Assembly (NCBI RefSeq): GCF_055900595.2
Contig: NZ_CM148325.1
Length of the DNA: 64,000 nt
Direction: 5' to 3' (one strand)
The position numbers and the translations under genes were made by a program. Of this stretch, positions 8,498 to 63,882 are shown one piece after another (the stretch's first letter is position 1; each line of letters begins with the position of its first letter). The notes beneath the pieces were generated by a model. That model searched no databases. It was not told where the DNA came from and saw only the letters and a program-made list of their open reading frames with translations.

Positions 8498-8683
8498 CTA
8501 CCTGCGCGGCGCAGGCTTCTTCCACTGGTAGGCGGGTGATCGCATCATTTCGCGAAATTTGTCACGCCGGGCTATATTGGCATTAACTGAGCGTTCTATC
8601 TCCCGTTGATCTGCCGGGGTTAGCTGGTGGCCTTCGTGCTCCAGTTTGGCGGTGGTCAATAAAGCTATTTCGCGTGGTGTCAT
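8498..8683 (-). CDS. Small hypothetical protein
   Basis: 61-aa ORF, charged and helical-looking, no family recognised. Confidence 0.3.
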   Translation of the reverse strand: MTPREIALLTTAKLEHEGHQLTPADQREIERSVNANIARRDKFREMMRSPAYQWKKPAPRR

Positions 8684-8911
8684 ACGTCATACCCTCTGGA
8701 AGGATGAAACACGCCCGGATTAAATTTCATTTTTCGCGGGTATAAAAAAACGATGGGGCGGGCAGTCCCGGATAGTCAGGGCTGTAGAGATTTGACTACC
8801 CCCTCCCCACTGGATTCAGGTTACTGCTATTCCGTTAAGCGCTGCTTACGGGGATAGCTGCGTTGTGATTTTGACCATTCAGGTCGCCGCTATTTCCTCA
8901 CCGATTGGGTG

Positions 8912-53519: not shown

Positions 53520-54383
53520 CTATTTTTTATGATAATCAACAATATCATGAATAATTATTTCATTTTCTGTTTCAGAATATAAAACTCTATCTCCCCCTCT
53601 TCCTTTACCACTTCCTGGTAAGTCGGCTGCTGATTTCCCTTTTAAATCACCATGTAAAGAATGCTGGTTTTTTCCTGACTCACCACGAGAAAGCATAATT
53701 TTAATAGCATCATAGGCTTCAGCTTGTTTTCCTTTGAGCGCATCCCCCTTCTTCGCCGCCAAATCCTCCTCTATGATGGTTTTCATTTGGGTAGGACATT
53801 TTTCACCTGCCAGCCCCCACGGGTCGCACCAACCCACCGGATTATGCACATAAGACTGCGTATCCAGCCCGCCGCTCAGTTTCAGCGGATCCTGGCTTAA
53901 ATACTGCCCCGTCCCGGCGTCGTAGTAGCGGTGTAAATTATACCACAGCCCGCTCTCCTCATCCTGCCACTGGCCCATGAAGCCCGCATCGCAGCTTTCA
54001 CGCTCACTGTCCGGCGAGTCGTTTGCAGCCAGCCCCCACAGGCTGCGGTGTTTCGTCCACACCTTCCGCCCGTTCGCGCAGTACATCTCCTGCGGCGCGC
54101 CGTCCGGGCCGGTCACTACCGGGTAAAAATAACTTCTGTCATCATTCGCCGCCCGGCTTTCCTTCGCCAGCAGTTCAAATCTGCCCCCGGTAGTGCCACT
54201 GCTCCCGTAGCGCCGGGCTGCCGTCTGCATAGCGTTTCTCACTTGTGGAAAGCGCCATCCCAAGCCACTGGTAGCGTACTTCGCTGATGGCGTGCGGGCT
54301 TCGTTTCCACGCTGCCCGGATAACGCAGCGTTTTGCCGTTCGTCTGCCAAAGGCGTCGTAGCTGTACTGCCACACTTCACCAT
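53520..54383 (-). CDS. Rhs C-terminal segment: end of core (PxxxxDPxGL) plus about 100-aa variable toxin domain; separated from core ORF by frameshift
   Basis: GLWYNLHRYYDAGTGQYLSQDPLKLSGGLDTQSYVHNPVGWCDPWGL then divergent C-terminus ending RVLYSETENEIIIHDIVDYHKK. Confidence 0.75.
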   Translation of the reverse strand: MVKCGSTATTPLADERQNAALSGQRGNEARTPSAKYATSGLGWRFPQVRNAMQTAARRYGSSGTTGGRFELLAKESRAANDDRSYFYPVVTGPDGAPQEMYCANGRKVWTKHRSLWGLAANDSPDSERESCDAGFMGQWQDEESGLWYNLHRYYDAGTGQYLSQDPLKLSGGLDTQSYVHNPVGWCDPWGLAGEKCPTQMKTIIEEDLAAKKGDALKGKQAEAYDAIKIMLSRGESGKNQHSLHGDLKGKSAADLPGSGKGRGGDRVLYSETENEIIIHDIVDYHKK

Positions 54384-57300
54384 CTGGTGTCTTTATCTCG
54401 CGCAGACGGTCGAAGTCATCCCAGCGGTAGCGCCACTCCTGCGGGCGAAAGCCGAGTTTTTGGTCGGTGCGCTTTGTCACCCTGCCGCAGGCGTCGTATC
54501 CGTAGCGGCTGTCACCGGCCTGGTTCACACATTCATTATTGTACTGGTGCTGCGACAGAATACCGTTTATCCGGCTTTCCGCTATCTGCTCATTGACCGT
54601 ATAGCGGTAGCGCTCTTCCTGTGCCGGACCACTGGCGTCCAGCCGCAGTACGCTGGTTATCTGGTCGCGGGCATCGTACTGGTAGCGCGTTTCCCGCTCC
54701 GTACGCGTTTTCGACCACACTTCATGCCCGGTCAGGCGGCCCGATTTATCCCACGCGTAACGGTGTTCGCCCAGCGGTCGCCACGATGCCACGCTCTGGT
54801 GGCTGCCTGCCAGCCGCTCTGCGCCCTGTTTTTGCCATGCCGTACGTCCGCAGGTGTCGTATCCCTGCTCCTGCATATAGACCGCATGGTTCAGCGGCGT
54901 CTGCGCCAGCCAGCTTTCCTCATCCTCCGGGCGGTAACGCCGATTTTTTTCAAGGCCCGCGGGGGAATGACTGAAGTCCATCCGGTGACCGTTGCTGCGG
55001 TAGCCCGTCAGAATGCCCGAAGCGTCGTATTCTCTCTGTGTTTCCCCGTCCGGCGTTGTGGTGCCAGTCAGCCTTCCGGCTTCGTCGTAACGGTACTCCG
55101 TGCGCTGGCCGTCCTGCTCTTCCGCCACCAGACGATGGCGTTCGTCCCACTCCAGTTTTACCTCACTGGTGAGCGTATAGCCTGCTTCACTGCCGTCGCT
55201 GCGCTCATACACCTGCGCACTCACCATCCGGTCATGGCGGTCGTACTGATAGCTGAGTTTCTGATGCTCGCCGCTGATGGTCGCCACCCGGCCATATTCA
55301 TCCCTCGCATAGCGCCATACGCTGCCGTCCGGGCGGTGTTTTTCTGCCAGCCGGCCCTGTTCATCACGGATATAGACGGTTCTGCGTCCCGACCAGTCCT
55401 CCTCCCCGGCCATCTGGCCCGCCGCATCGTAGTACAGCCGCCACTGCTGGTTGCCGCTGCGCGTAAGCTGCGTGAGCCTTGCGGCACCATCGTAGTCGCA
55501 AAGTATCCGCTGCCCGCCCGCGTCCTCCACTTCCCGCAGCAGGTCAAATGCCCCGTGGCGGTAGCGCGTGGTCTGGCCCATGGCCCCGGTGTGGAGAGTG
55601 ATTTTGCCTTCACCATCATAGCGGAAGGTTTCAGCGCCACCGTCGGCCCGGATTACTGCGCTCAGTTTCTCATGCGGGTTATCGGCACCGGGGCGGTACT
55701 GCCAGTTCACGCTGCGCCCTTCAGCATCCACCAGCCCCGTCAGCCGCAGCCAGCGGTCTTCCGTGTAATGGGTTGTGCGGCCTTCACCATCGGTATGGGA
55801 AAGCAGGCCACCGTGAGCGCTGTAGCTCCACTGTTCGTGGCTGCCGTCCGGGTACTGTATCTCCTTGAGCAGACCGTCTTCGGTATGACGGTACTGCCAG
55901 TTCTGCCCGTTCACCTCCCGGCGGATAAGATTCCCTTCGGCGTTATAATGGTACGCCGCCGTGGTGCGGTGGTCCTGGTATGCCGTAACCTGACCAAATT
56001 CATCCCACTGCCATTCACGTTTACGCCCGTTCTCGTCCGTTTCGCTCAGGATACGCCCGGCATAATCGCGTTTTATCTGAGTAATGCGCCCACCCGGCTG
56101 GCGAATACACAGCGGCTGGTCGTATTCGTTACGCTCCCATTCAGTGATACGCCCCAGCGGGTCACGCTGTTTTTTCAGCAGCCAGGACTCATCGAACCAC
56201 AGCGTGGTGGTGGCTCCGGTGGCATCGGTGTAATCGGTTCTGCGCTCCTCCGGGAAGTAGCGGAAGGTGTCGTTATACAGGCCTTCCTGTGTGCCTGTGG
56301 CAGTCACCCGGCCTTCATCGTCATAGCGCAGGTGGAAGTGCGTCGGGCCGTTGTCGCGCCAGGAACTCAGCCAGCCCTGTTCGGTATAGGTATAATGCAA
56401 CGCGCCATTAAAGCGGGTCTGCACATCGCTCAGTCGCTGTTCATCGCCGTGACTGATATAGTCATAGCGCACCAGCTCGCTGCCGTCTGACTCGTCGATC
56501 ACACGGAATATCTGCCCCTGCGGGCCACACATCACCCGCAGATTCAGGCCGCTGCTGTGGGTTACGTTTGTCAGTTGGCCGATGACGTTATAGGTGAAGC
56601 GAATTTCGTTGCGGTTGCGGTCTTTTATTGCCGTTAGCCGCAGGCGGCGTGCGCCGGGGGAGATGGGCGTAAAGATATAACCCAATTGTGAGTATTCGTC
56701 GAAGATAATAGCCCGCTCACGGTTTCCCAGGAGGCGATAGTGCGGGACAAGCAGGTTACGGCTACTGTATGGTGCCTGCTCCGTGGAGTAGGCCAGACAT
56801 AGCCCCTCAGCATCAAAGTAGGTGACGTTTTTCCCGTTGCAATCGAACTCCAGAAACTGCGACCAGTTACACAACCAGCGACTGCCCAGCAAACCACTAA
56901 CCGGATGTCGGCCTGTATAAGCACGTTTCAGCGTCAGCGGTAAAATATGCGGATAGTTGAAATCAGTTCGGTAATCCAGATATTCACCCGTTCCGGTATC
57001 CACCGGATCGCTGAACCCCTGACTGATACGCTCATTTGCGGCTCTGTTTAACTGCTTTGCTCCCCATAGAGCTGTTAACACTTCCAGACTTGATACAACA
57101 GATTGCTCCAGCACCGTCATATCGGCATTAATCGGCCCATACTGTCCGGTCGTCTTATCAGCCGTAATGGTTTTACATCCTTCCTGAATAACTGCCGAGC
57201 AGGTAATTTTATGGCCCTTACGCGCCAGCGGCAGGCTGTTGACGGAAATAATTTTGCTCCCTTCCACTATCTGTGGAGGAGGACTGCCCGGATCCTTACT

Positions 57301-57942
57301 ACATTCAACCGGATCAGTGACGCGAGCTACCGCTTTTCCTTCAAAAAAAACATTAGGAGAGCCTTCTACAATCTGTCCGGTTTCAGATGCCCAGCGGGAA
57401 CCAATTACCATCGCTGCGCCACCGACAAATCCACCAGCTAATCCCCCGGCCCCGGCAGCAACGGTGGCAGCCAGCACACCCAATGCCGCGCCCCCTGTAG
57501 CGACAACCAGAGCTCCCACTGCAATCCCTACAATAAGTCCACCGATTAACCCACCAATAGCACCCAGAAAGGAATTGTTATGAACAATGTGATGACCCAC
57601 ACACGCAGGTATATCTGTTGGGCCGGAAACTGCGTGATCTTTACCCCAGGTATCCATGAACCAGTCACCTGCTTTGGTGCCCAGCCATCCCCCCAGCATC
57701 CCGCCAACCAGTCCGGCAATCAAAGGGCCTCCAAATCCTGCAACAGCTTTGGCTATTCCGGCTGCACAGGTGTTTGCTGCTGCGGCTGCCAGTCCTACCT
57801 TTGCCGTTGCTCCCACCATACTGACAGCCATTATTCCAGTACTGGCAATATGTCCTGTGGTAGCAATACTCTCCACTGTTTCGGCATTACTGTCCCGTTG
57901 ATCCAGCTCCGCTAACTTCTCCTGCGCGCTTTTTTCCGTCAT
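54175..57942 (-). CDS. PAAR-Rhs protein, N-terminal and YD-repeat core (frameshifted relative to C-terminal segment)
   Basis: Gly-rich hydrophobic N-terminus, PAAR-like GSPNVFFEGKAVARVTDPVEC, many YD repeats (RYDDEGR, RYDGEGK, YRYDEAGRL). Confidence 0.85.
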   Translation of the reverse strand: MTEKSAQEKLAELDQRDSNAETVESIATTGHIASTGIMAVSMVGATAKVGLAAAAANTCAAGIAKAVAGFGGPLIAGLVGGMLGGWLGTKAGDWFMDTWGKDHAVSGPTDIPACVGHHIVHNNSFLGAIGGLIGGLIVGIAVGALVVATGGAALGVLAATVAAGAGGLAGGFVGGAAMVIGSRWASETGQIVEGSPNVFFEGKAVARVTDPVECSKDPGSPPPQIVEGSKIISVNSLPLARKGHKITCSAVIQEGCKTITADKTTGQYGPINADMTVLEQSVVSSLEVLTALWGAKQLNRAANERISQGFSDPVDTGTGEYLDYRTDFNYPHILPLTLKRAYTGRHPVSGLLGSRWLCNWSQFLEFDCNGKNVTYFDAEGLCLAYSTEQAPYSSRNLLVPHYRLLGNRERAIIFDEYSQLGYIFTPISPGARRLRLTAIKDRNRNEIRFTYNVIGQLTNVTHSSGLNLRVMCGPQGQIFRVIDESDGSELVRYDYISHGDEQRLSDVQTRFNGALHYTYTEQGWLSSWRDNGPTHFHLRYDDEGRVTATGTQEGLYNDTFRYFPEERRTDYTDATGATTTLWFDESWLLKKQRDPLGRITEWERNEYDQPLCIRQPGGRITQIKRDYAGRILSETDENGRKREWQWDEFGQVTAYQDHRTTAAYHYNAEGNLIRREVNGQNWQYRHTEDGLLKEIQYPDGSHEQWSYSAHGGLLSHTDGEGRTTHYTEDRWLRLTGLVDAEGRSVNWQYRPGADNPHEKLSAVIRADGGAETFRYDGEGKITLHTGAMGQTTRYRHGAFDLLREVEDAGGQRILCDYDGAARLTQLTRSGNQQWRLYYDAAGQMAGEEDWSGRRTVYIRDEQGRLAEKHRPDGSVWRYARDEYGRVATISGEHQKLSYQYDRHDRMVSAQVYERSDGSEAGYTLTSEVKLEWDERHRLVAEEQDGQRTEYRYDEAGRLTGTTTPDGETQREYDASGILTGYRSNGHRMDFSHSPAGLEKNRRYRPEDEESWLAQTPLNHAVYMQEQGYDTCGRTAWQKQGAERLAGSHQSVASWRPLGEHRYAWDKSGRLTGHEVWSKTRTERETRYQYDARDQITSVLRLDASGPAQEERYRYTVNEQIAESRINGILSQHQYNNECVNQAGDSRYGYDACGRVTKRTDQKLGFRPQEWRYRWDDFDRLREIKTPDGEVWQYSYDAFGRRTAKRCVIRAAWKRSPHAISEVRYQWLGMALSTSEKRYADGSPALREQWHYRGQI

Positions 57943-57972: not shown

Positions 57973-58404
57973 TTATTTATCCTGTGGCATTCCAAAACAA
58001 AAATTCAATAATGCTCCCCGCATCGCTTTACGATCCTCCTCTGCCAGCGCCTGCGTTGAGGAATAGGTCAGCGTCAGTACTTGTCGCTCGTTCAGGATTA
58101 CCAGCAGCAACTGCTGTATCATCACCCCCTTGTTATCCCAGCTAAATTCCCAGTATTCCGCCGGGCGCTCCTGCACATGACAGCGTTCTTCTACGGTGAA
58201 CACCATTTTCGACAGTTCGGTACGGAATTTCTTTTTCTGCACCGCCAGATAGTCATCAAACTGCGCGCCTTCCGGCAATATTTCACGAGTGACAACTACA
58301 TTTGCTCCGGCAACCGCACTTAGTACTGGCGTCAGAATATTCATACTGCTGTCCTGCCAGTTTCCCGGCAGAGTGAAATGCCCTTCATTAATGAGATATT
58401 GCAT
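57973..58404 (-). CDS. DUF1795-like (Eag-family) T6SS effector chaperone
   Basis: 143-aa ORF in the canonical position between vgrG and the PAAR-Rhs gene. Confidence 0.6.
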   Translation of the reverse strand: MQYLINEGHFTLPGNWQDSSMNILTPVLSAVAGANVVVTREILPEGAQFDDYLAVQKKKFRTELSKMVFTVEERCHVQERPAEYWEFSWDNKGVMIQQLLLVILNERQVLTLTYSSTQALAEEDRKAMRGALLNFCFGMPQDK

Positions 58405-58436: not shown

Positions 58437-60656
58437 TTACTGTGGATTTAGCGCCAGATGGGTGGGTCCATCGAGGGTGATAGTGCCGTCTGAATTCATA
58501 ACAAGAGTGCTTTTTCCGACAGTCAACTTTATCTGCGTTGCTGCGGTAAGGTGTATCGCCCCGGTTTTTGACGTGATGGTGATATTCCCTTCTACCGTCT
58601 CCGTGCAGGTTCCCGTTTCTACCGTCACCTCGCGTTTACCCGTTTTCACCGTCAGAGACTGGTCGCCTTCCGTTACGGTAATATTCCGGTTGCCTTTGAT
58701 GGTTTCGGTATGCTTACCATCAACAAATTCCGTGCGGTCGATTTTTACCGTGGATGTTTCGTTATGAATGATGGTTTTCGTCCGATCTGCCTTTACCGTG
58801 TGTGTTTCGTTATTTTTCACGACGGTATTCAGATCTTTCTCCGCAAGAAACCTCACTTCTTCCGCCCCCGTTTTATCGTCAAAGCGCAGCATGTTTCCGT
58901 TGGTCGCCCCCCCCTGTAACGAGTGGCTGAATATCCCGCTCTGCGACGCCATGCCCGGTAGCCCCCACGGCGGCATGGTGTCCTGGTTGTAGGTGCGCCC
59001 CACGATAATCGGTAGATCCGGGTCGCCATTTTTGAAATCCACCAGCACTTCCTGGCCGATGCGCGGGATCTGGATCATGCCGAATCCTTTACCCGCCCAC
59101 GGATAGCTGACGCGGATCCAGCAGGAGCTGTTTTCGTCATTATTACCGTAACGATCCCAGCCAAACTGCACCTTCACCCGGCCATATTTATCCGTCCAGA
59201 TTTCCTGCCCTACCGGGCCGGTGACGATGGCGCTCTGCGGGCCTTTGGTGTGGGGTTTGCTCAGGGTTCGTTGTGGGCGGTAAACTTCGCGGGTGGGATG
59301 CAGTTCAAACGTGGTGACATAGGTAAAATGCTGATCCTGGCCGCTGTGCTGCGCGTTGTCCCGTAAAAACAGCGTGGTTTGTACCAACAGATATTCCTGA
59401 TTAATTTCTGCCGTCGGGTGATTCATCAACGTAAAGGTGTACCCGGTCATGAGGGTACGGATATGACCGGCCCCATGTGCCCGGCTGCCGGGGCTGCGCT
59501 GCGCTTCCATACGAATGCGCGTCAGCATCTCACCTTCGCCCGTAGTGAAGTAATCACCAGGCCATTCATAATGCTCATATTCAGCATGACCGGTATTACG
59601 CGGACTAGCCACGGTACTTTTAAGCAGCGAACGAGGCTTCATAAAATCAAAATCGTCCATCACCCACTTTCCAGTACGCAGTCTCTCACTGGCCGTAATG
59701 GTGTGGATAAATTCTTTGTCCAGTTTCAGCCCTTCCTGGTGCCACTCCACCAGTGGCGAGTCAGGGCACGCTTTATGACCATTGATGGCATCCGTCAGCA
59801 CCAGCGTATGGCAGTTCTCGCTGTGCTCAAACCACCAGTAGATTCCCCACTCCTGCATCAGGCGCTGGATGAAATCGAAGTCGGTTTCACCATACTGCAC
59901 CTGCCAGACGCGGGGTGGATAATTTTCCACCAGCCGCTTTTCCACCGGAAAGGAATATTCATCCAGTACTTCATCGAGAATATCCACCACGGTTTTGTTC
60001 TGGAACGCTTTGTAGTCGCTGGTATGGGTCAGCAGCTTCAGCCATGGCTCAATGCGTAATTCATACGTTACCGAACGGCCCTCATGGCCGACCACCCTCG
60101 CCGCCGTCACCAGCCCGCTGATATACCGTTTTCCGCCACCGTCCAGTTCGATACTGACGCACAGGTCTTTGCCTACCATGGGCTGAAGCGGCAGGTTGGC
60201 CGCGGGGGAAACGTATCCCAGGTTCAGGGCGTCCGGCGTTTTAAGCTGTACTGTGTAGGAAAACAGATTCCCAAGCCCTTCCGAACCATTCATGCCTGCG
60301 AACAGCAGCATCTGCGGCGGCACCGAACCACCACTTACTGTGACGTTATGCGCCCCCGGACCACCGGCTGCAAGCGACGCCGCCGCATCCTGAACTGCAC
60401 CAGCCATATCCGATATCCCTGCTGCTGCGGCGGCGGCTTGCGCAGCGGCTACTGCGGCTTTAACCAGACCTGACGGTTCCGGCAACGCACCAAACAGGTC
60501 CGCCACTGCCTGTTCTGCCATCTGCTCGGCGGCATCAGCTACATCGGTTGCGGCTGAACCTGTGCTCATACTGCCACTTTCGCCAGCTATTGGTGGTGTG
60601 GTGATGACGGGTCCACCGTTTCCAACTGGTTTATTACCCGTAGATACAAAACTCAT
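58437..60656 (-). CDS. vgrG: T6SS spike protein VgrG with about 110-aa Ala/Gly-rich N-terminal extension in frame
   Basis: gp27/gp5-like regions: [22 protein letters not shown]..., [46 protein letters not shown]. Confidence 0.9.
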
Positions 60657-60680
60657 GATATTTGCTCCTTTAATACCGGA

Positions 60681-61067
60681 TTAAAATCTAGCCCCTGGTG
60701 GCCAAAAAATATAAGTAATCACTCTCCATTGCCCGTCTTTATAATGAAACCAACATGTCAGATTCAAATCCCCCTGCAAATTCCAGAACATTTCCTTAAT
60801 AGGAACATTTTGAAATTCAGGATCTGTTATGCGATAAGTTTGATTCAAGCCGATATAATACTCACCAACAAATTTATATCGTGGCCTCACGAACTCATGA
60901 GCAGGCGGCCCATATTTCTTCATAAAAAAGATGTCATTACTTCCATCATGTATATCATTTTCTTCATAATATTTGGTGGATTGAGCAACTGCAGAAGGCG
61001 AGAAAACATTCACTGTAGTTATGTAAGTTATTGAAAGGAAAATCACTATAATACAGAAAAATTTCAT
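60681..61067 (-). CDS. Secreted protein (signal peptide), candidate immunity for metallopeptidase effector
   Basis: 128 aa MKFFCIIVIFLSITYITTVNVFSPSAVA...; conserved C-terminal half shared with 62776-63147. Confidence 0.55.
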   Translation of the reverse strand: MKFFCIIVIFLSITYITTVNVFSPSAVAQSTKYYEENDIHDGSNDIFFMKKYGPPAHEFVRPRYKFVGEYYIGLNQTYRITDPEFQNVPIKEMFWNLQGDLNLTCWFHYKDGQWRVITYIFWPPGARF

Positions 61068-61765
61068 TTGGTTACATTCAATAAAGTAAATTTAGTTTCA
61101 GGCATTATGACATTCAACGTTATAGTTGCGTTTTTAAGGTATCGTTCCCGAAGCTCCATTCCCACATTCATCAACCCACTAATATCTCCAACATACGGAG
61201 ACGAAGAATCATAATCATCATCTAAGTAACCAAGTACATGTCCGGCTTCATGAGGTATATTTACTTGCAACGTATTATTACAGTTAATACATTTCGCTAC
61301 TTTTTCCAGGTCCGCTGAATCAACATGAACCGTACTGTTTTTAAAATCAACATATGTTCTTAAATCAGCACCAGGCAAAACCTTTGTTGCAATAACCAAC
61401 CAGTCTTCATTCTGAGATGCAGAAATTATTCTTACATCAAAAGGCAAAGCTTTACCCTGAAATTTTTTAGCGAACTCAGATTCACCGGAAACAGAATAAG
61501 TTATTTTCCCATTCCATGCCTGCTGAACAGATAAATATATCGCTCGCATAAAAATAGCTTTTTCCCATATAATCCAGTCATCTGTAACGGTATTATCTTT
61601 ATACCACTCATACTTCCATCTTATCACAGCCGTAATCGAACCAGTATTTTGATTTAATAAATACGTCCTCCTACCATCCTTATGTATAATGATATCGCCA
61701 TCAATATTTGTTTTTTCATAGTATTCGGCCAGCAAACTATTCTCATCATATTTAAGCTTGGTCAT
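61064..61765 (-). CDS. Putative zinc metallopeptidase (HExxHxxGxxD), candidate T6SS cargo effector
   Basis: 233 aa with HEAGHVLGYLD motif; overlaps downstream gene by 4 nt; directly upstream of vgrG. Confidence 0.6.
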   Translation of the reverse strand: MTKLKYDENSLLAEYYEKTNIDGDIIIHKDGRRTYLLNQNTGSITAVIRWKYEWYKDNTVTDDWIIWEKAIFMRAIYLSVQQAWNGKITYSVSGESEFAKKFQGKALPFDVRIISASQNEDWLVIATKVLPGADLRTYVDFKNSTVHVDSADLEKVAKCINCNNTLQVNIPHEAGHVLGYLDDDYDSSSPYVGDISGLMNVGMELRERYLKNATITLNVIMPETKFTLLNVTK

Positions 61766-61831: not shown

Positions 61832-61977
61832 TTACGAGTATTGCCCCTTCAGCCGCAGCGCATCCACATACCGTCCTTCACTGCAGGGCAAGATTACGAA
61901 AGCCCGCCCCGCAAGGACTGACGCGAGGTAGTTTCTGTCCATGGCTGCTTTTATCATCTTACGTCTTAACCCTGCCT
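61832..61977 (-). pseudogene. H-repeat-associated (ISAs1-family) transposase 3' remnant fused in frame to truncated vgrG
   Basis: [24 protein letters not shown] matches the H-rpt protein C-terminus. Confidence 0.6.
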
Positions 61978-62419
61978 TGGTTTCGCCGTACTGCACCTGC
62001 CAGGCGCGGGGTGGATAATTTTCCACCAGCCGCTTTTCCACCGGAAAGGAATATTCATCCAGTACTTCATCGAGAATATCCACCACGGTTTTGTTCTGGA
62101 ACGCTTTGTAGTCGCTGGTATGGGTCAGCAGCTTCAGCCATGGCTCAATGCGTAATTCATACGTTACCGAACGGCCCTCATGGCCGACCACCCTCGCCGC
62201 CGTCACCAGCCCGCTGATATACCGTTTTCCGCCACCGTCCAGTTCGATACTGACGCACAGGTCTTTGCCTACCATGGGCTGAAGCGGCAGGTTGGCGGCG
62301 AGGGAGACATATCCGAGGTTCAGGGTGTCCGGGGTTTTAAGCTGTACTATGTAGGAAAACAGGTTTCCAAGCCCTTCCGAACCATTCATGCCTGCAAACA
62401 AAAGCAGCTGCGGCGGCAC
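61978..62419 (-). pseudogene. Truncated second copy of vgrG (first about 147 aa only)
   Basis: Near-identical to the N-terminal gp27-like region of the vgrG at 58437-60656 up to QVQYGET. Confidence 0.8.
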
Positions 62420-62430
62420 CGCACTACCAC

Positions 62431-62751
62431 TTACTGTGACGTTATGCCCCCCGGACCACCGGCAGCAAGCGACGCCGCCGCATCCTGAACTGCACCAGCC
62501 ATATCCGAGATCCCTGCTGCGGCGGCTGCGGCTTGCGCAGCAGCTACTGCGGCTTTAACCAGACCTGACGGTTCCGGCAACGCACCAAACAGGTCCGCCG
62601 CGGCCTGTTCTGCCATCTGCTCGGCTGCATCAGCTACATCGGTTGCGGCTGAACTGGCGCTTACAGCACTACTTTCTCCGGCTATCGGTGGCGTGGAGAT
62701 AGCTGGCCCACCGTTACTGCCAGATTTATTACCCGTAGATACAAAACTCAT
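62431..62751 (-). CDS. Ala/Gly-rich 106-aa ORF equivalent to the N-terminal extension of the intact vgrG, here separate because of a 1-nt indel
   Basis: [27 protein letters not shown]... about 85 percent identical to vgrG residues 1-105. Confidence 0.45.
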
Positions 62752-62775
62752 GATATTTATTCCTTTAATATCGGA

Positions 62776-63147
62776 TTAAAATTTTGCGCCCGGCGGCCAG
62801 AAAAAATAAGAAATAACCCGCCACTGTCCATCTTTATAATGAAAAAAACATGTCAGATTTAAATCCCCCCGCAAATGCCAAAACATTTCTTTGATGGGGA
62901 TATTTCTGAATTCAGGATTCGTTGAGCGATAGACATTTTCAATCTCTATATAATACTCACCGACTAATTTATAACGAGGCTTTATAAATTCATACGCTGG
63001 CTGACCATAGTTATTTAATAGAACATTCTCTTCAACTCCATTATACACACCACTCGCATTCAGATAAGCATACCCAGGAATATCAGACATGCTATTTTTC
63101 GCCCCACCCACTATCAAAAAAATAATCACAGCGTATATTAGTTTCAT
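62776..63147 (-). CDS. Secreted protein (signal peptide), paralog of candidate immunity at 60681-61067
   Basis: Conserved C-terminal half KPRYKLVGEYYI...PIKEMFWHLRGDLNLTCFFHYKDGQWRVISYFFWPPGAKF. Confidence 0.5.
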   Translation of the reverse strand: MKLIYAVIIFLIVGGAKNSMSDIPGYAYLNASGVYNGVEENVLLNNYGQPAYEFIKPRYKLVGEYYIEIENVYRSTNPEFRNIPIKEMFWHLRGDLNLTCFFHYKDGQWRVISYFFWPPGAKF

Positions 63148-63160
63148 TTTTTTACGCTTT

Positions 63161-63882
63161 TCACAAAAAATTAGAACCCGGAACCATTCTATTTAACCGC
63201 TCAATGACATTTCCCATATAACGAGAGCGCAGTTCCATACCAATATTCATTAACGCACTGGCATCCCCGGAGAATGGTGTAGTTGCTTTATCTGCATCAT
63301 CACTATAGTATTCATCGGTAAGATATCCAATAATATGCCCAAGCTCATGAGACAGCCCCATTTGCTTAGAGCAAACTTTTGATGAACCAAGACATTTAGC
63401 TGCTGCAACTATATCTTTAGAGTCAAGTTCAACGTATCGACTATTCCAGACAATGGAACTCTGACGAAAACTATTTGGATCATCATTATCAATTTTAAAC
63501 ACCACCACATCCCAATACCCATGACGATCAGTCTGAATTATTTCTATTGTGAAAGATAAATCCTTACCATTAAACTTACTGACAAACTCAGACTTCCCAG
63601 AAACGGATAAAAAAACCTTATTATTCCATGTTTGATTAATGACAAAAATAACTTTTCCATGAAAGGCTTTTTTTCCATATCTGTCCAATCAGTTTTTGCA
63701 TCCCATCTTTTTATCCAATTATATTTCCATCTCAGCAACAATGAGATTGCACCATTTTCACGGTCAATTCTTAAATCTCCCCAGGCATCATTGTCCCTGA
63801 TATATCGTTTATCCAGCATTAAGTCGTCATAAGCATCGTATGCCTGCTGAATAGCCTCATCATGAGAGTCACCCATGTTCAC
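63161..63882 (-). pseudogene. Paralog of metallopeptidase effector (HELGHIIGYLTDEY), split by a frameshift at a T7 run near 63668-63674
   Basis: Two overlapping ORFs (63544-63882 and 63161-63688) jointly align to 61064-61765. Confidence 0.6.

Follow-up and report, generated by a model that had tools for sequence, protein, structure and literature searches.

What is the function of the two small overlapping genes that lie directly upstream of vgrG in the T6SS (type VI secretion system) region of an Escherichia coli chromosome? We addressed this question in a stretch of 64,000 nucleotides (nt) from contig NZ_CM148325.1 of NCBI RefSeq assembly GCF_055900595.2, hereafter the window, whose positions are used throughout. 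Our analysis indicates that the two genes likely form an antibacterial T6SS effector-immunity pair, comprising a predicted zinc endopeptidase delivered to the periplasm and a periplasmic immunity protein that blocks it. An earlier note, drawn from the letters of the window alone, had described a protein of 233 amino acids (aa) with an HExxHxxGxxD motif, a 128-aa protein with a signal peptide, a 4-nt overlap of their genes, and vgrG directly downstream. All of these elements were present at the positions it gave, the overlap being ATGA and the vgrG start codon lying 24 nt past the stop codon of the 128-aa gene (60657-60680). This pair, a second, diverged pair upstream of it, vgrG, and the DcrB-related and Rhs genes that follow are all encoded on the minus strand. 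The features that carry the argument are as follows.

61064-61765, minus strand: candidate effector gene, 233 aa, encoding a leaderless predicted zinc metallopeptidase with a metzincin-like predicted fold.
60681-61067, minus strand: candidate immunity gene, 128 aa, an open reading frame (ORF) whose product has 34 homologues, a predicted export signal, and a conserved C-terminal domain of ~95 aa.
61064-61067, minus strand: ATGA stop/start overlap of the effector and immunity genes, read in the sequence.
60984-61067, minus strand: residues 1-28 of the 128-aa protein, predicted to be a Sec signal peptide that ends at AVA/Q, from hydropathy and a cleavage site read by eye.
61211-61252, minus strand: predicted zinc-site motif H172-E173-A-G-H176-V-L-G-Y-L-D-D183-D-Y185, from conservation among 122 sequences.
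61169-61171, minus strand: M199, candidate Met-turn methionine in a GDxSxLMNxG stretch, at least 90% conserved in a 20-sequence alignment.
58437-60656, minus strand: intact vgrG, 739 aa, from the ORF and annotation.

The 233-aa protein carries HEAGHVLGYLDDDY, in which HEAGHVLGYLD corresponds to residues 172-182 (nt 61220-61252). A word-indexed search with this protein recovered close enterobacterial relatives only, and a profile search, run against 1.84 billion representatives of sequence clusters, yielded 323 relatives, mostly of ~215 aa. In an alignment of 122 homologues, H172, E173, and H176 were invariant, and G175, D183, Y185, D194, G202, R206, and R208 were each conserved in at least 90% of the sequences, with a family consensus of HEFGHxxGxxxDEY...DxxSIMNxGxxLRxRH. 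G179, which matches the consensus, and M199, which falls in its SIMNxG part and may be the Met-turn methionine, were at least 90% conserved in the 20-sequence alignment. Conservation of the motif across the family indicates that HExxH is not a chance occurrence. In distant members (HEFGHMLGLxDEY) the conserved Asp is located at +10; the E. coli subfamily, with one extra loop residue, has it at +11 (D183). The motif of the earlier note was accordingly right in its His and Glu residues, and the Asp it implied, D182, has to be replaced by D183. A Cys pair near residues 159-162 (KC...C) was also conserved, which would fit an oxidizing compartment.

Searches of Pfam, NCBIfam, and PDB sequences returned no match for the 233-aa protein. 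Profile matches in PDB comprised M64 peptidases (E 0.006), serralysins, snapalysin, matrix metalloproteinases, and meprins, and covered the motif region only, the printed stretches being 23-29 residues long. Individual family members matched Pfam M6, Reprolysin_2/4, M10, and M64 weakly, and none of the 122 members matched the Tox-MPTase2-5 Pfam families at E<=0.1. Structure prediction by AlphaFold2 with the 122-sequence alignment produced a model with a pLDDT of 94.7 and a pTM of 0.89; the 8 close homologues alone gave a pLDDT of 39 and an unusable model. The confident model consisted of a long helix (residues 66-84), a beta-sheet, a short helix bearing HExxH (residues 169-177), and a C-terminal helix (residues 207-220). 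This predicted arrangement corresponds to the metzincin-type catalytic domain with its beta-sheet, backing helix, active-site helix, and C-terminal helix, and the sequence appears to supply the extended zinc-binding motif HExxHxxGxxH/D of metzincins. A Foldseek search of PDB with the model was barely informative. We conclude that the 233-aa protein is a divergent metzincin-like predicted zinc peptidase outside the Pfam peptidase families tested; the zincin fold suggested earlier for it is thereby supported at the level of a predicted model.

We compared the protein with the named families closest to it in motif. Snapalysin (MEROPS M7; PDB 1c7k and 4hx3), the type to which the motif had first been likened, is a Sec-secreted Streptomyces enzyme with the motif HExxHxxGxxDxY, the spacing of which is as in the distant family members. 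The resemblance held for the motif and not for family membership: neither the 233-aa protein nor any of the 122 members matched Peptidase_M7 in Pfam, the E. coli subfamily has the extra residue before the conserved Asp, and the 233-aa protein has an added N-terminal beta-rich segment of ~60 residues that includes conserved Trp and Tyr residues. Peptidase M64 (PF09471), which includes the IgA peptidase of Thomasclavelia ramosa and the Bacteroides structures 3p1v and 4df9, matched neither the 233-aa protein nor its Salmonella homologue and matched only one of the 122 members at E<=0.001; the PDB match to it spans ~29 residues, and M64 enzymes are much larger and multidomain. Following these family tests, membership of the 233-aa protein in M7, M64, Tox-MPTase2-5, and Tpe was rejected.

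The partner differs from the peptidase in carrying an export signal. Export calls were based on the hydropathy of 11-residue segments, with cleavage sites read by eye. The 128-aa protein starts with MKFFCIIVIFLSITYITTVNVFSPSAVAQ, has a maximum 11-residue hydropathy of 3.28, and shows an AVA-Q site. A hydrophobic N-terminal segment was found in all 24 aligned partner homologues (median hydropathy 2.75, minimum 1.82), even though their N-termini diverge, and in none of the 122 peptidase homologues (maximum 1.71). These data bear out the signal peptide claimed for the partner, and they define an arrangement typical of T6SS pairs, namely an effector gene lacking a Sec signal and an adjacent, co-oriented small gene encoding an exported product. 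The mature partner domain of ~95 residues was strongly conserved. The 34 homologues of the 128-aa protein came from Escherichia, Citrobacter, Enterobacter, Salmonella, and Hafnia, and no relative of them or of the 128-aa protein was found in Pfam or PDB; an NCBIfam search with the 128-aa protein was likewise negative. The ATGA overlap recurred in the pairs of Enterobacter, Citrobacter, Salmonella, E. coli JML285, a metagenome contig (L010), and Cellulophaga, which implies translational coupling of the effector and immunity genes.

Next, we focused on the genomic contexts of the pair. The 1.3-kb region that holds it was 100% identical to that of E. coli strain R32_14_1F, in which the T6SS cluster is complete. 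The gene order there is tssC, hcp, tssJ, tssK, tssL, tssM, tagF, a glucosaminidase-domain gene with its partner, the second pair, a vgrG fragment, the pair under study (pair 1), vgrG, a DcrB-related gene, and Rhs, followed by the chromosomal genes yafV, ivy, and fadE; the pair sits between tssM-tagF and vgrG-DcrB-PAAR/Rhs. In Enterobacter, the order is tagF, then the pair and a vgrG stub of 41 aa, then Rap1a-Tae4 and other genes, and last vgrG-DcrB-Rhs. In Citrobacter farmeri, the pair has Tlde1, Rap1a-Tae4, and glucosaminidase/Tgi2PP cassettes ahead of it; behind it come a second pair, then a vgrG fragment, and finally vgrG. In Salmonella, genes of 243 and 144 aa follow tagF in that order, and what is left of another peptidase copy lies between them and vgrG. 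The enterobacterial pairs of the four genera thus occur at one and the same place, within or beside T6SS genes, in the variable region that holds the effector-immunity genes of this T6SS type, and in Enterobacter and Citrobacter they share that region with cell-wall-directed cassettes (Tae4, Tlde1, and Tge2 pairs). The leader asymmetry, this context, and the domain fusions described below make an effector with a periplasmic immunity protein, as had been proposed, the best reading of the predicted products.

Pair 1 is rare: among 5,426 complete E. coli genomes, 34 carried it. Another ~100 complete genomes had a pair of a third subfamily (242 and 123 aa) between tagF and vgrG, and the family as a whole, in three subfamilies, occurred in ~2.6% of complete E. 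coli genomes and in at least 1,000 Salmonella contigs. E. coli JML285 (L019 6001-7097) carries a third-subfamily pair with the ATGA overlap, and its tssM has an internal stop. In R32_14_1F (L001 17589-18517, just past the end of the window), a 156-aa glucosaminidase-domain protein with a weak FlgJ-type match is encoded between tagF and the second pair by a gene overlapping that of a 157-aa partner; these are probably a Tge2-like effector-immunity pair, and the corresponding Citrobacter neighbor matches Tgi2PP.

Relatives of the peptidase extend beyond enterobacteria to Flavobacteriia and myxobacteria, with one match in Planctomycetota; the taxonomy and context of these distant members come from a handful of look-ups and from source names. 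In Cellulophaga, Cystobacter, and one further genome, the leaderless peptidase gene is tightly followed by a gene of 115-123 aa whose product has a signal or lipobox-like N-terminus and belongs to a family unrelated to the enterobacterial partners, and Imm52 or Imm11 genes adjoin two of these three loci. The partner on the L010 metagenome contig is a homologue of the enterobacterial partner family. Some members are fused to N-terminal LysM or PG_binding_1 domains, and others to OmpA-type peptidoglycan-binding domains. The N-termini read of the LysM- and PG_binding_1-fused members contained no leader, and these members lie on contigs too short for gene context.

From these features, the following mode of action may be proposed. 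The 233-aa peptidase, made without a signal peptide, would be harmless in the cytoplasm of the producer and would be injected by the T6SS into the periplasm of a neighboring Gram-negative cell, where it would cut an envelope substrate, either a peptidoglycan-associated protein or a peptidoglycan peptide itself. Sec would export the 128-aa protein to the periplasm of the producer, where it would bind and block peptidase arriving from sister cells. A periplasmic site of action is suggested because the partner has an export signal and the family has peptidoglycan-binding fusions. Catalysis, toxicity, neutralization by binding, the substrate, and the route of loading, on Hcp or VgrG, are what we infer in this scheme. 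An alternative role for the peptidase as a peptidoglycan-remodeling enzyme of T6SS assembly was rejected, as it is leaderless, occurs in a minority of clusters, and is duplicated.

Several observations weigh against assigning the pair to T6SS antagonism. In E. coli L73, the T6SS core is deleted beside tRNA-Asp and the peptidase and partner are intact (L018 5193-10206), the cluster remnants being a partial ImpA, vgrG, and Rhs; ~30 genomes gave near-identical matches (95-99%). Since the core has been lost, the pair cannot serve as a T6SS weapon in genomes of the L73 type. Among the handful of loci of distant members examined, no T6SS genes were found within 10 kb, which means that the family in general may rely on export by other routes. 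Our search of the literature found no experimental work on any family member. The conservation of the partner is also atypical. Comparing the window pairs with those in L001, L002, L004, L007, and L019, we found that the mature partner domain is 56-75% identical between enterobacterial subfamilies, compared with 33-55% for the peptidase, and immunity proteins are described as usually sharing little identity with their orthologues (PMC6899460). Such conservation might allow cross-protection, or might reflect contact of the partner with the invariant active site. On the supporting side, effector and partner distances were correlated across 8 pairs (Mantel r 0.70, p about 0.001); physical linkage alone could yield this co-divergence.

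The alternative that survives best leaves the effector-immunity assignment intact and concerns loading: the effector may be loaded specifically on the adjacent VgrG spike and not inside the Hcp tube. We regard this refinement as possible, with the balance of evidence on the other side. In every enterobacterial locus read, the vgrG start codon (MSFVSTGNK...) lies 24 nt past the partner stop codon (32 nt in one), and both window pairs precede vgrG or a vgrG fragment. The junction loci are 60657-60680 and 62752-62775 of the window, L002 11083-11232, L004 11086-11219 and 12507-12531, L018 6986-7081, and L019 5977-6000. This constant junction ties the cassette to vgrG. It is kept even where a vgrG stub of only 24-41 aa remains and other cassettes follow, so that the exchange unit looks like effector, immunity gene, and vgrG 5' end. 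A protein of 233 aa may, in addition, be large for Hcp cargo. The same junction could, however, merely mark cassette exchange through recombination in the conserved vgrG 5' end. No DUF4123, DUF2169, or DUF1795 adaptor gene was found beside the pair, the DcrB-type gene being past vgrG and next to PAAR-Rhs. The VgrG-dependent delivery assumed in the earlier note is to be read as a candidate route. The neighboring cassettes of the region encode small periplasmic enzymes, and a survey from 2026 maps toxins that target the periplasm to this region (PMC12994826).

A second alternative takes the two genes out of T6SS altogether, as a polymorphic-toxin cassette with another export route or as a regulated endogenous protease with its inhibitor, residing in a recombination-prone region. 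It would accommodate both the distant homologues of Cellulophaga, Cystobacter, and others without T6SS genes within 10 kb and the E. coli strains in which the pair has outlived its T6SS cluster, and metzincin-inhibitor pairs exist outside T6SS, as exemplified by a Listeria metzincin with a TIMP-like lipoprotein (PMC8235301). We nevertheless consider it unlikely. The pair occupies the same place inside the T6SS cluster in four enterobacterial genera, in two of them among effector-immunity cassettes of validated type; the leaderless peptidase would have no self-contained way to meet its exported partner; and the leaderless peptidoglycan-binding fusions require a non-Sec route over the inner membrane.

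The surroundings of the pair in the window comprise the following features.

63161-63882, minus strand: second peptidase gene, 244 aa when intact, frameshifted here, in two ORFs of different frames.
62776-63147, minus strand: second candidate immunity gene, 123 aa, its product 51% identical to the 128-aa protein, with an N-terminal hydropathy of 3.39.
61979-62751, minus strand: pseudogene made up of a 5' fragment of vgrG, which repeats, in direct orientation, the 5' end of the intact vgrG.
57973-58404, minus strand: DcrB-related (DUF1795/Eag-type) gene downstream of vgrG, from annotation and from PF08786 matches on orthologous genes.
54175-57942, minus strand: PAAR-Rhs effector gene, shortened in the window, from the ORF, annotation, and comparison with R32_14_1F.

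The second peptidase carries HELGHIIGYLTDEY and was 34% identical to the 233-aa protein (E 1e-46); with the 51% identity of the partners, this corroborates the diverged second copy that had been noticed upstream. Where R32_14_1F has an intact 244-aa gene, the second peptidase gene of the window lacks 1 nt at each of two sites, 63165 and 63668, both within homopolymer runs (A and T), and is thereby broken into two reading frames; the losses are either real decay or sequencing errors. Tandem arrays and their decay seem common, with two pairs in E. coli and two in Citrobacter. In the Salmonella locus L007, an ORF of 48 aa at 8615-8761, downstream of the pair, is what remains of the C-terminus of a further copy of the peptidase (...MNIGTELREHYL...LNVIIPDASF).

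The vgrG fragment and the intact vgrG 5' end form direct repeats that are 89-99% identical and 2.1 kb apart, and the R32_14_1F annotation gives the fragment as a partial gene of the 'phage late control D family' with a frameshift. The GC content of both cassettes was ~34-38%, as compared with ~55% for vgrG, a difference that fits a mobile cassette. These surroundings raise a third alternative, in which the module in this strain is a decaying remnant without current function: the upstream peptidase gene has two frameshifts, a mere fragment of vgrG lies between the pairs, the Rhs gene is shortened, and tssM is interrupted in JML285. Decay of this kind is quite improbable for the pair itself, as the 233-aa and 128-aa ORFs are intact and 100% identical to those of R32_14_1F, where the T6SS core genes are annotated as intact, and as the homopolymer indels could be sequencing errors. 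Finally, an anti-eukaryotic, host-directed protease effector with an exported small protein of non-immunity role is most unlikely, given the tightly coupled exported partner kept across phyla, including free-living marine and soil bacteria, the fusions to LysM, PG_binding_1, and OmpA domains, and the antibacterial cell-wall effectors in the neighboring cassettes.

Having retained the antibacterial effector-immunity reading, we related the pair to previously described proteins. Blondel et al. (2023; PMC10469887) predicted in silico, from variable region 2 of Salmonella SPI-6, two 243-aa candidate effectors, annotated as 'Reprolysin_4' (SESEF3709_03438 and SEES3845_018655) and 'Peptidase_M64' (NCTC7411_03656), both with downstream partners of 84-144 aa bearing a signal peptide or transmembrane segment. 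Their published label 'peptidoglycan hydrolase (amidase)' is in silico only (PMC10469887), and serovars such as Senftenberg, Tennessee, and Montevideo are named across this work and PMC11669294. The Salmonella 243-aa protein found here, which has a 144-aa partner and overlapping genes between tagF and vgrG, was 46-47% identical to both E. coli paralogues and had no Pfam match. Its length, position, size of partner, and serovar all agree with those of the published candidates, a match by description and not by sequence. The Salmonella homologues are probably also the 'STox_19' of a 2026 catalogue, an assignment that likewise rests on description and citation: its row reads 'Metallopeptidase; cargo 163 of 198 loci; This study; Blondel et al. 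2023', with EOV2532878.1 as the representative, and the main text contains no discussion of it (PMC12994826). The E. coli proteins form separate subfamilies (233, 244, and 242 aa) from the Salmonella candidates. Prior art hence exists in the Salmonella homologues, predicted in silico as effector-immunity candidates, to which the E. coli pair is an additional member. The claim that the pair belongs to no named family stands with respect to Pfam and not with respect to these candidates (PMC10469887) or, probably, STox_19 (PMC12994826).

The characterized T6SS metallopeptidase effector-immunity family comprises Tpe1-Tpi1 from Acinetobacter baylyi and, from Pseudomonas aeruginosa, the VgrG2b C-terminal domain with PA0261, and the substrate of Tpe1/VgrG2b was unidentified as of a 2019 study (PMC6899460). 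As predicted for the E. coli pair, this family combines an HExxH zinc metallopeptidase that acts in the periplasm of the target cell with an envelope-exposed immunity protein whose gene lies just downstream (PMC6899460). The 233-aa family, in contrast, has no detectable homology to the VgrG2b C-terminal domain or Tpe1. Tae4-Tai4, Tlde1-Tldi1, and Tge2-Tgi2 occupy the same variable regions and likewise pair a leaderless enzyme with an exported immunity protein (PMC12994826). They differ from the metzincin-like family in having unrelated folds and chemistry (cysteine amidase, L,D-transpeptidase-like, and muramidase, respectively) and known peptidoglycan targets.

Competition between strains in the gut is decided by T6SS effectors, and most characterized periplasmic effectors hydrolyze peptidoglycan or lipids, with few proteases among them. 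The present family offers a second protease scaffold, unrelated to Tpe1/VgrG2b, for asking which envelope protein or peptide bond has to be cut by a T6SS protease for killing, and its peptidoglycan-binding fusions provide a concrete place to seek the substrate. Given how unusually conserved the immunity domain is, subfamilies might also protect against one another's effectors. To the in silico prediction of the Salmonella candidates, our analysis adds a confident metzincin-like model, a broad taxonomic spread in which exported partners come from two unrelated families, the peptidoglycan-binding fusions, and the conserved junction with vgrG. Going further, we tentatively suggest, as a proposal that could well prove wrong, that the pair is the E. 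coli representative of an unrecognized family of leaderless 'mini-metzincin' antibacterial toxins, found in Proteobacteria, Flavobacteriia, and myxobacteria with a match in Planctomycetota. Such toxins would have at least two unrelated exported immunity families and would cut a conserved envelope target associated with peptidoglycan. In Enterobacteriaceae they would move as an effector-immunity-vgrG(5') cassette, an arrangement that would reflect spike-specific loading from upstream of vgrG.

Further observations concern the neighboring genes of the window. The DcrB-related gene goes, by position, with the PAAR-Rhs effector and not with the peptidase pair. The last ~49 codons of the ORF that runs on from the vgrG fragment (61832-61978) are not vgrG sequence; at the equivalent place in R32_14_1F, RefSeq annotates a 72-nt partial 'hypothetical protein'. 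In the region 53520-57942, the PAAR-Rhs gene encodes 1255 aa here compared with 1512 aa in R32_14_1F. Its 3' part (53823-55291) has a mosaic character, with numerous substitutions and short indels, one of the latter at 54184 beside the end of the ORF, and a 287-aa ORF (53520-54383) carries on Rhs in another frame. Long ORFs on the plus strand, antisense to Rhs and vgrG (54292-56490, 59379-60059, and 60084-60473; up to 732 aa), were judged to be composition artefacts.

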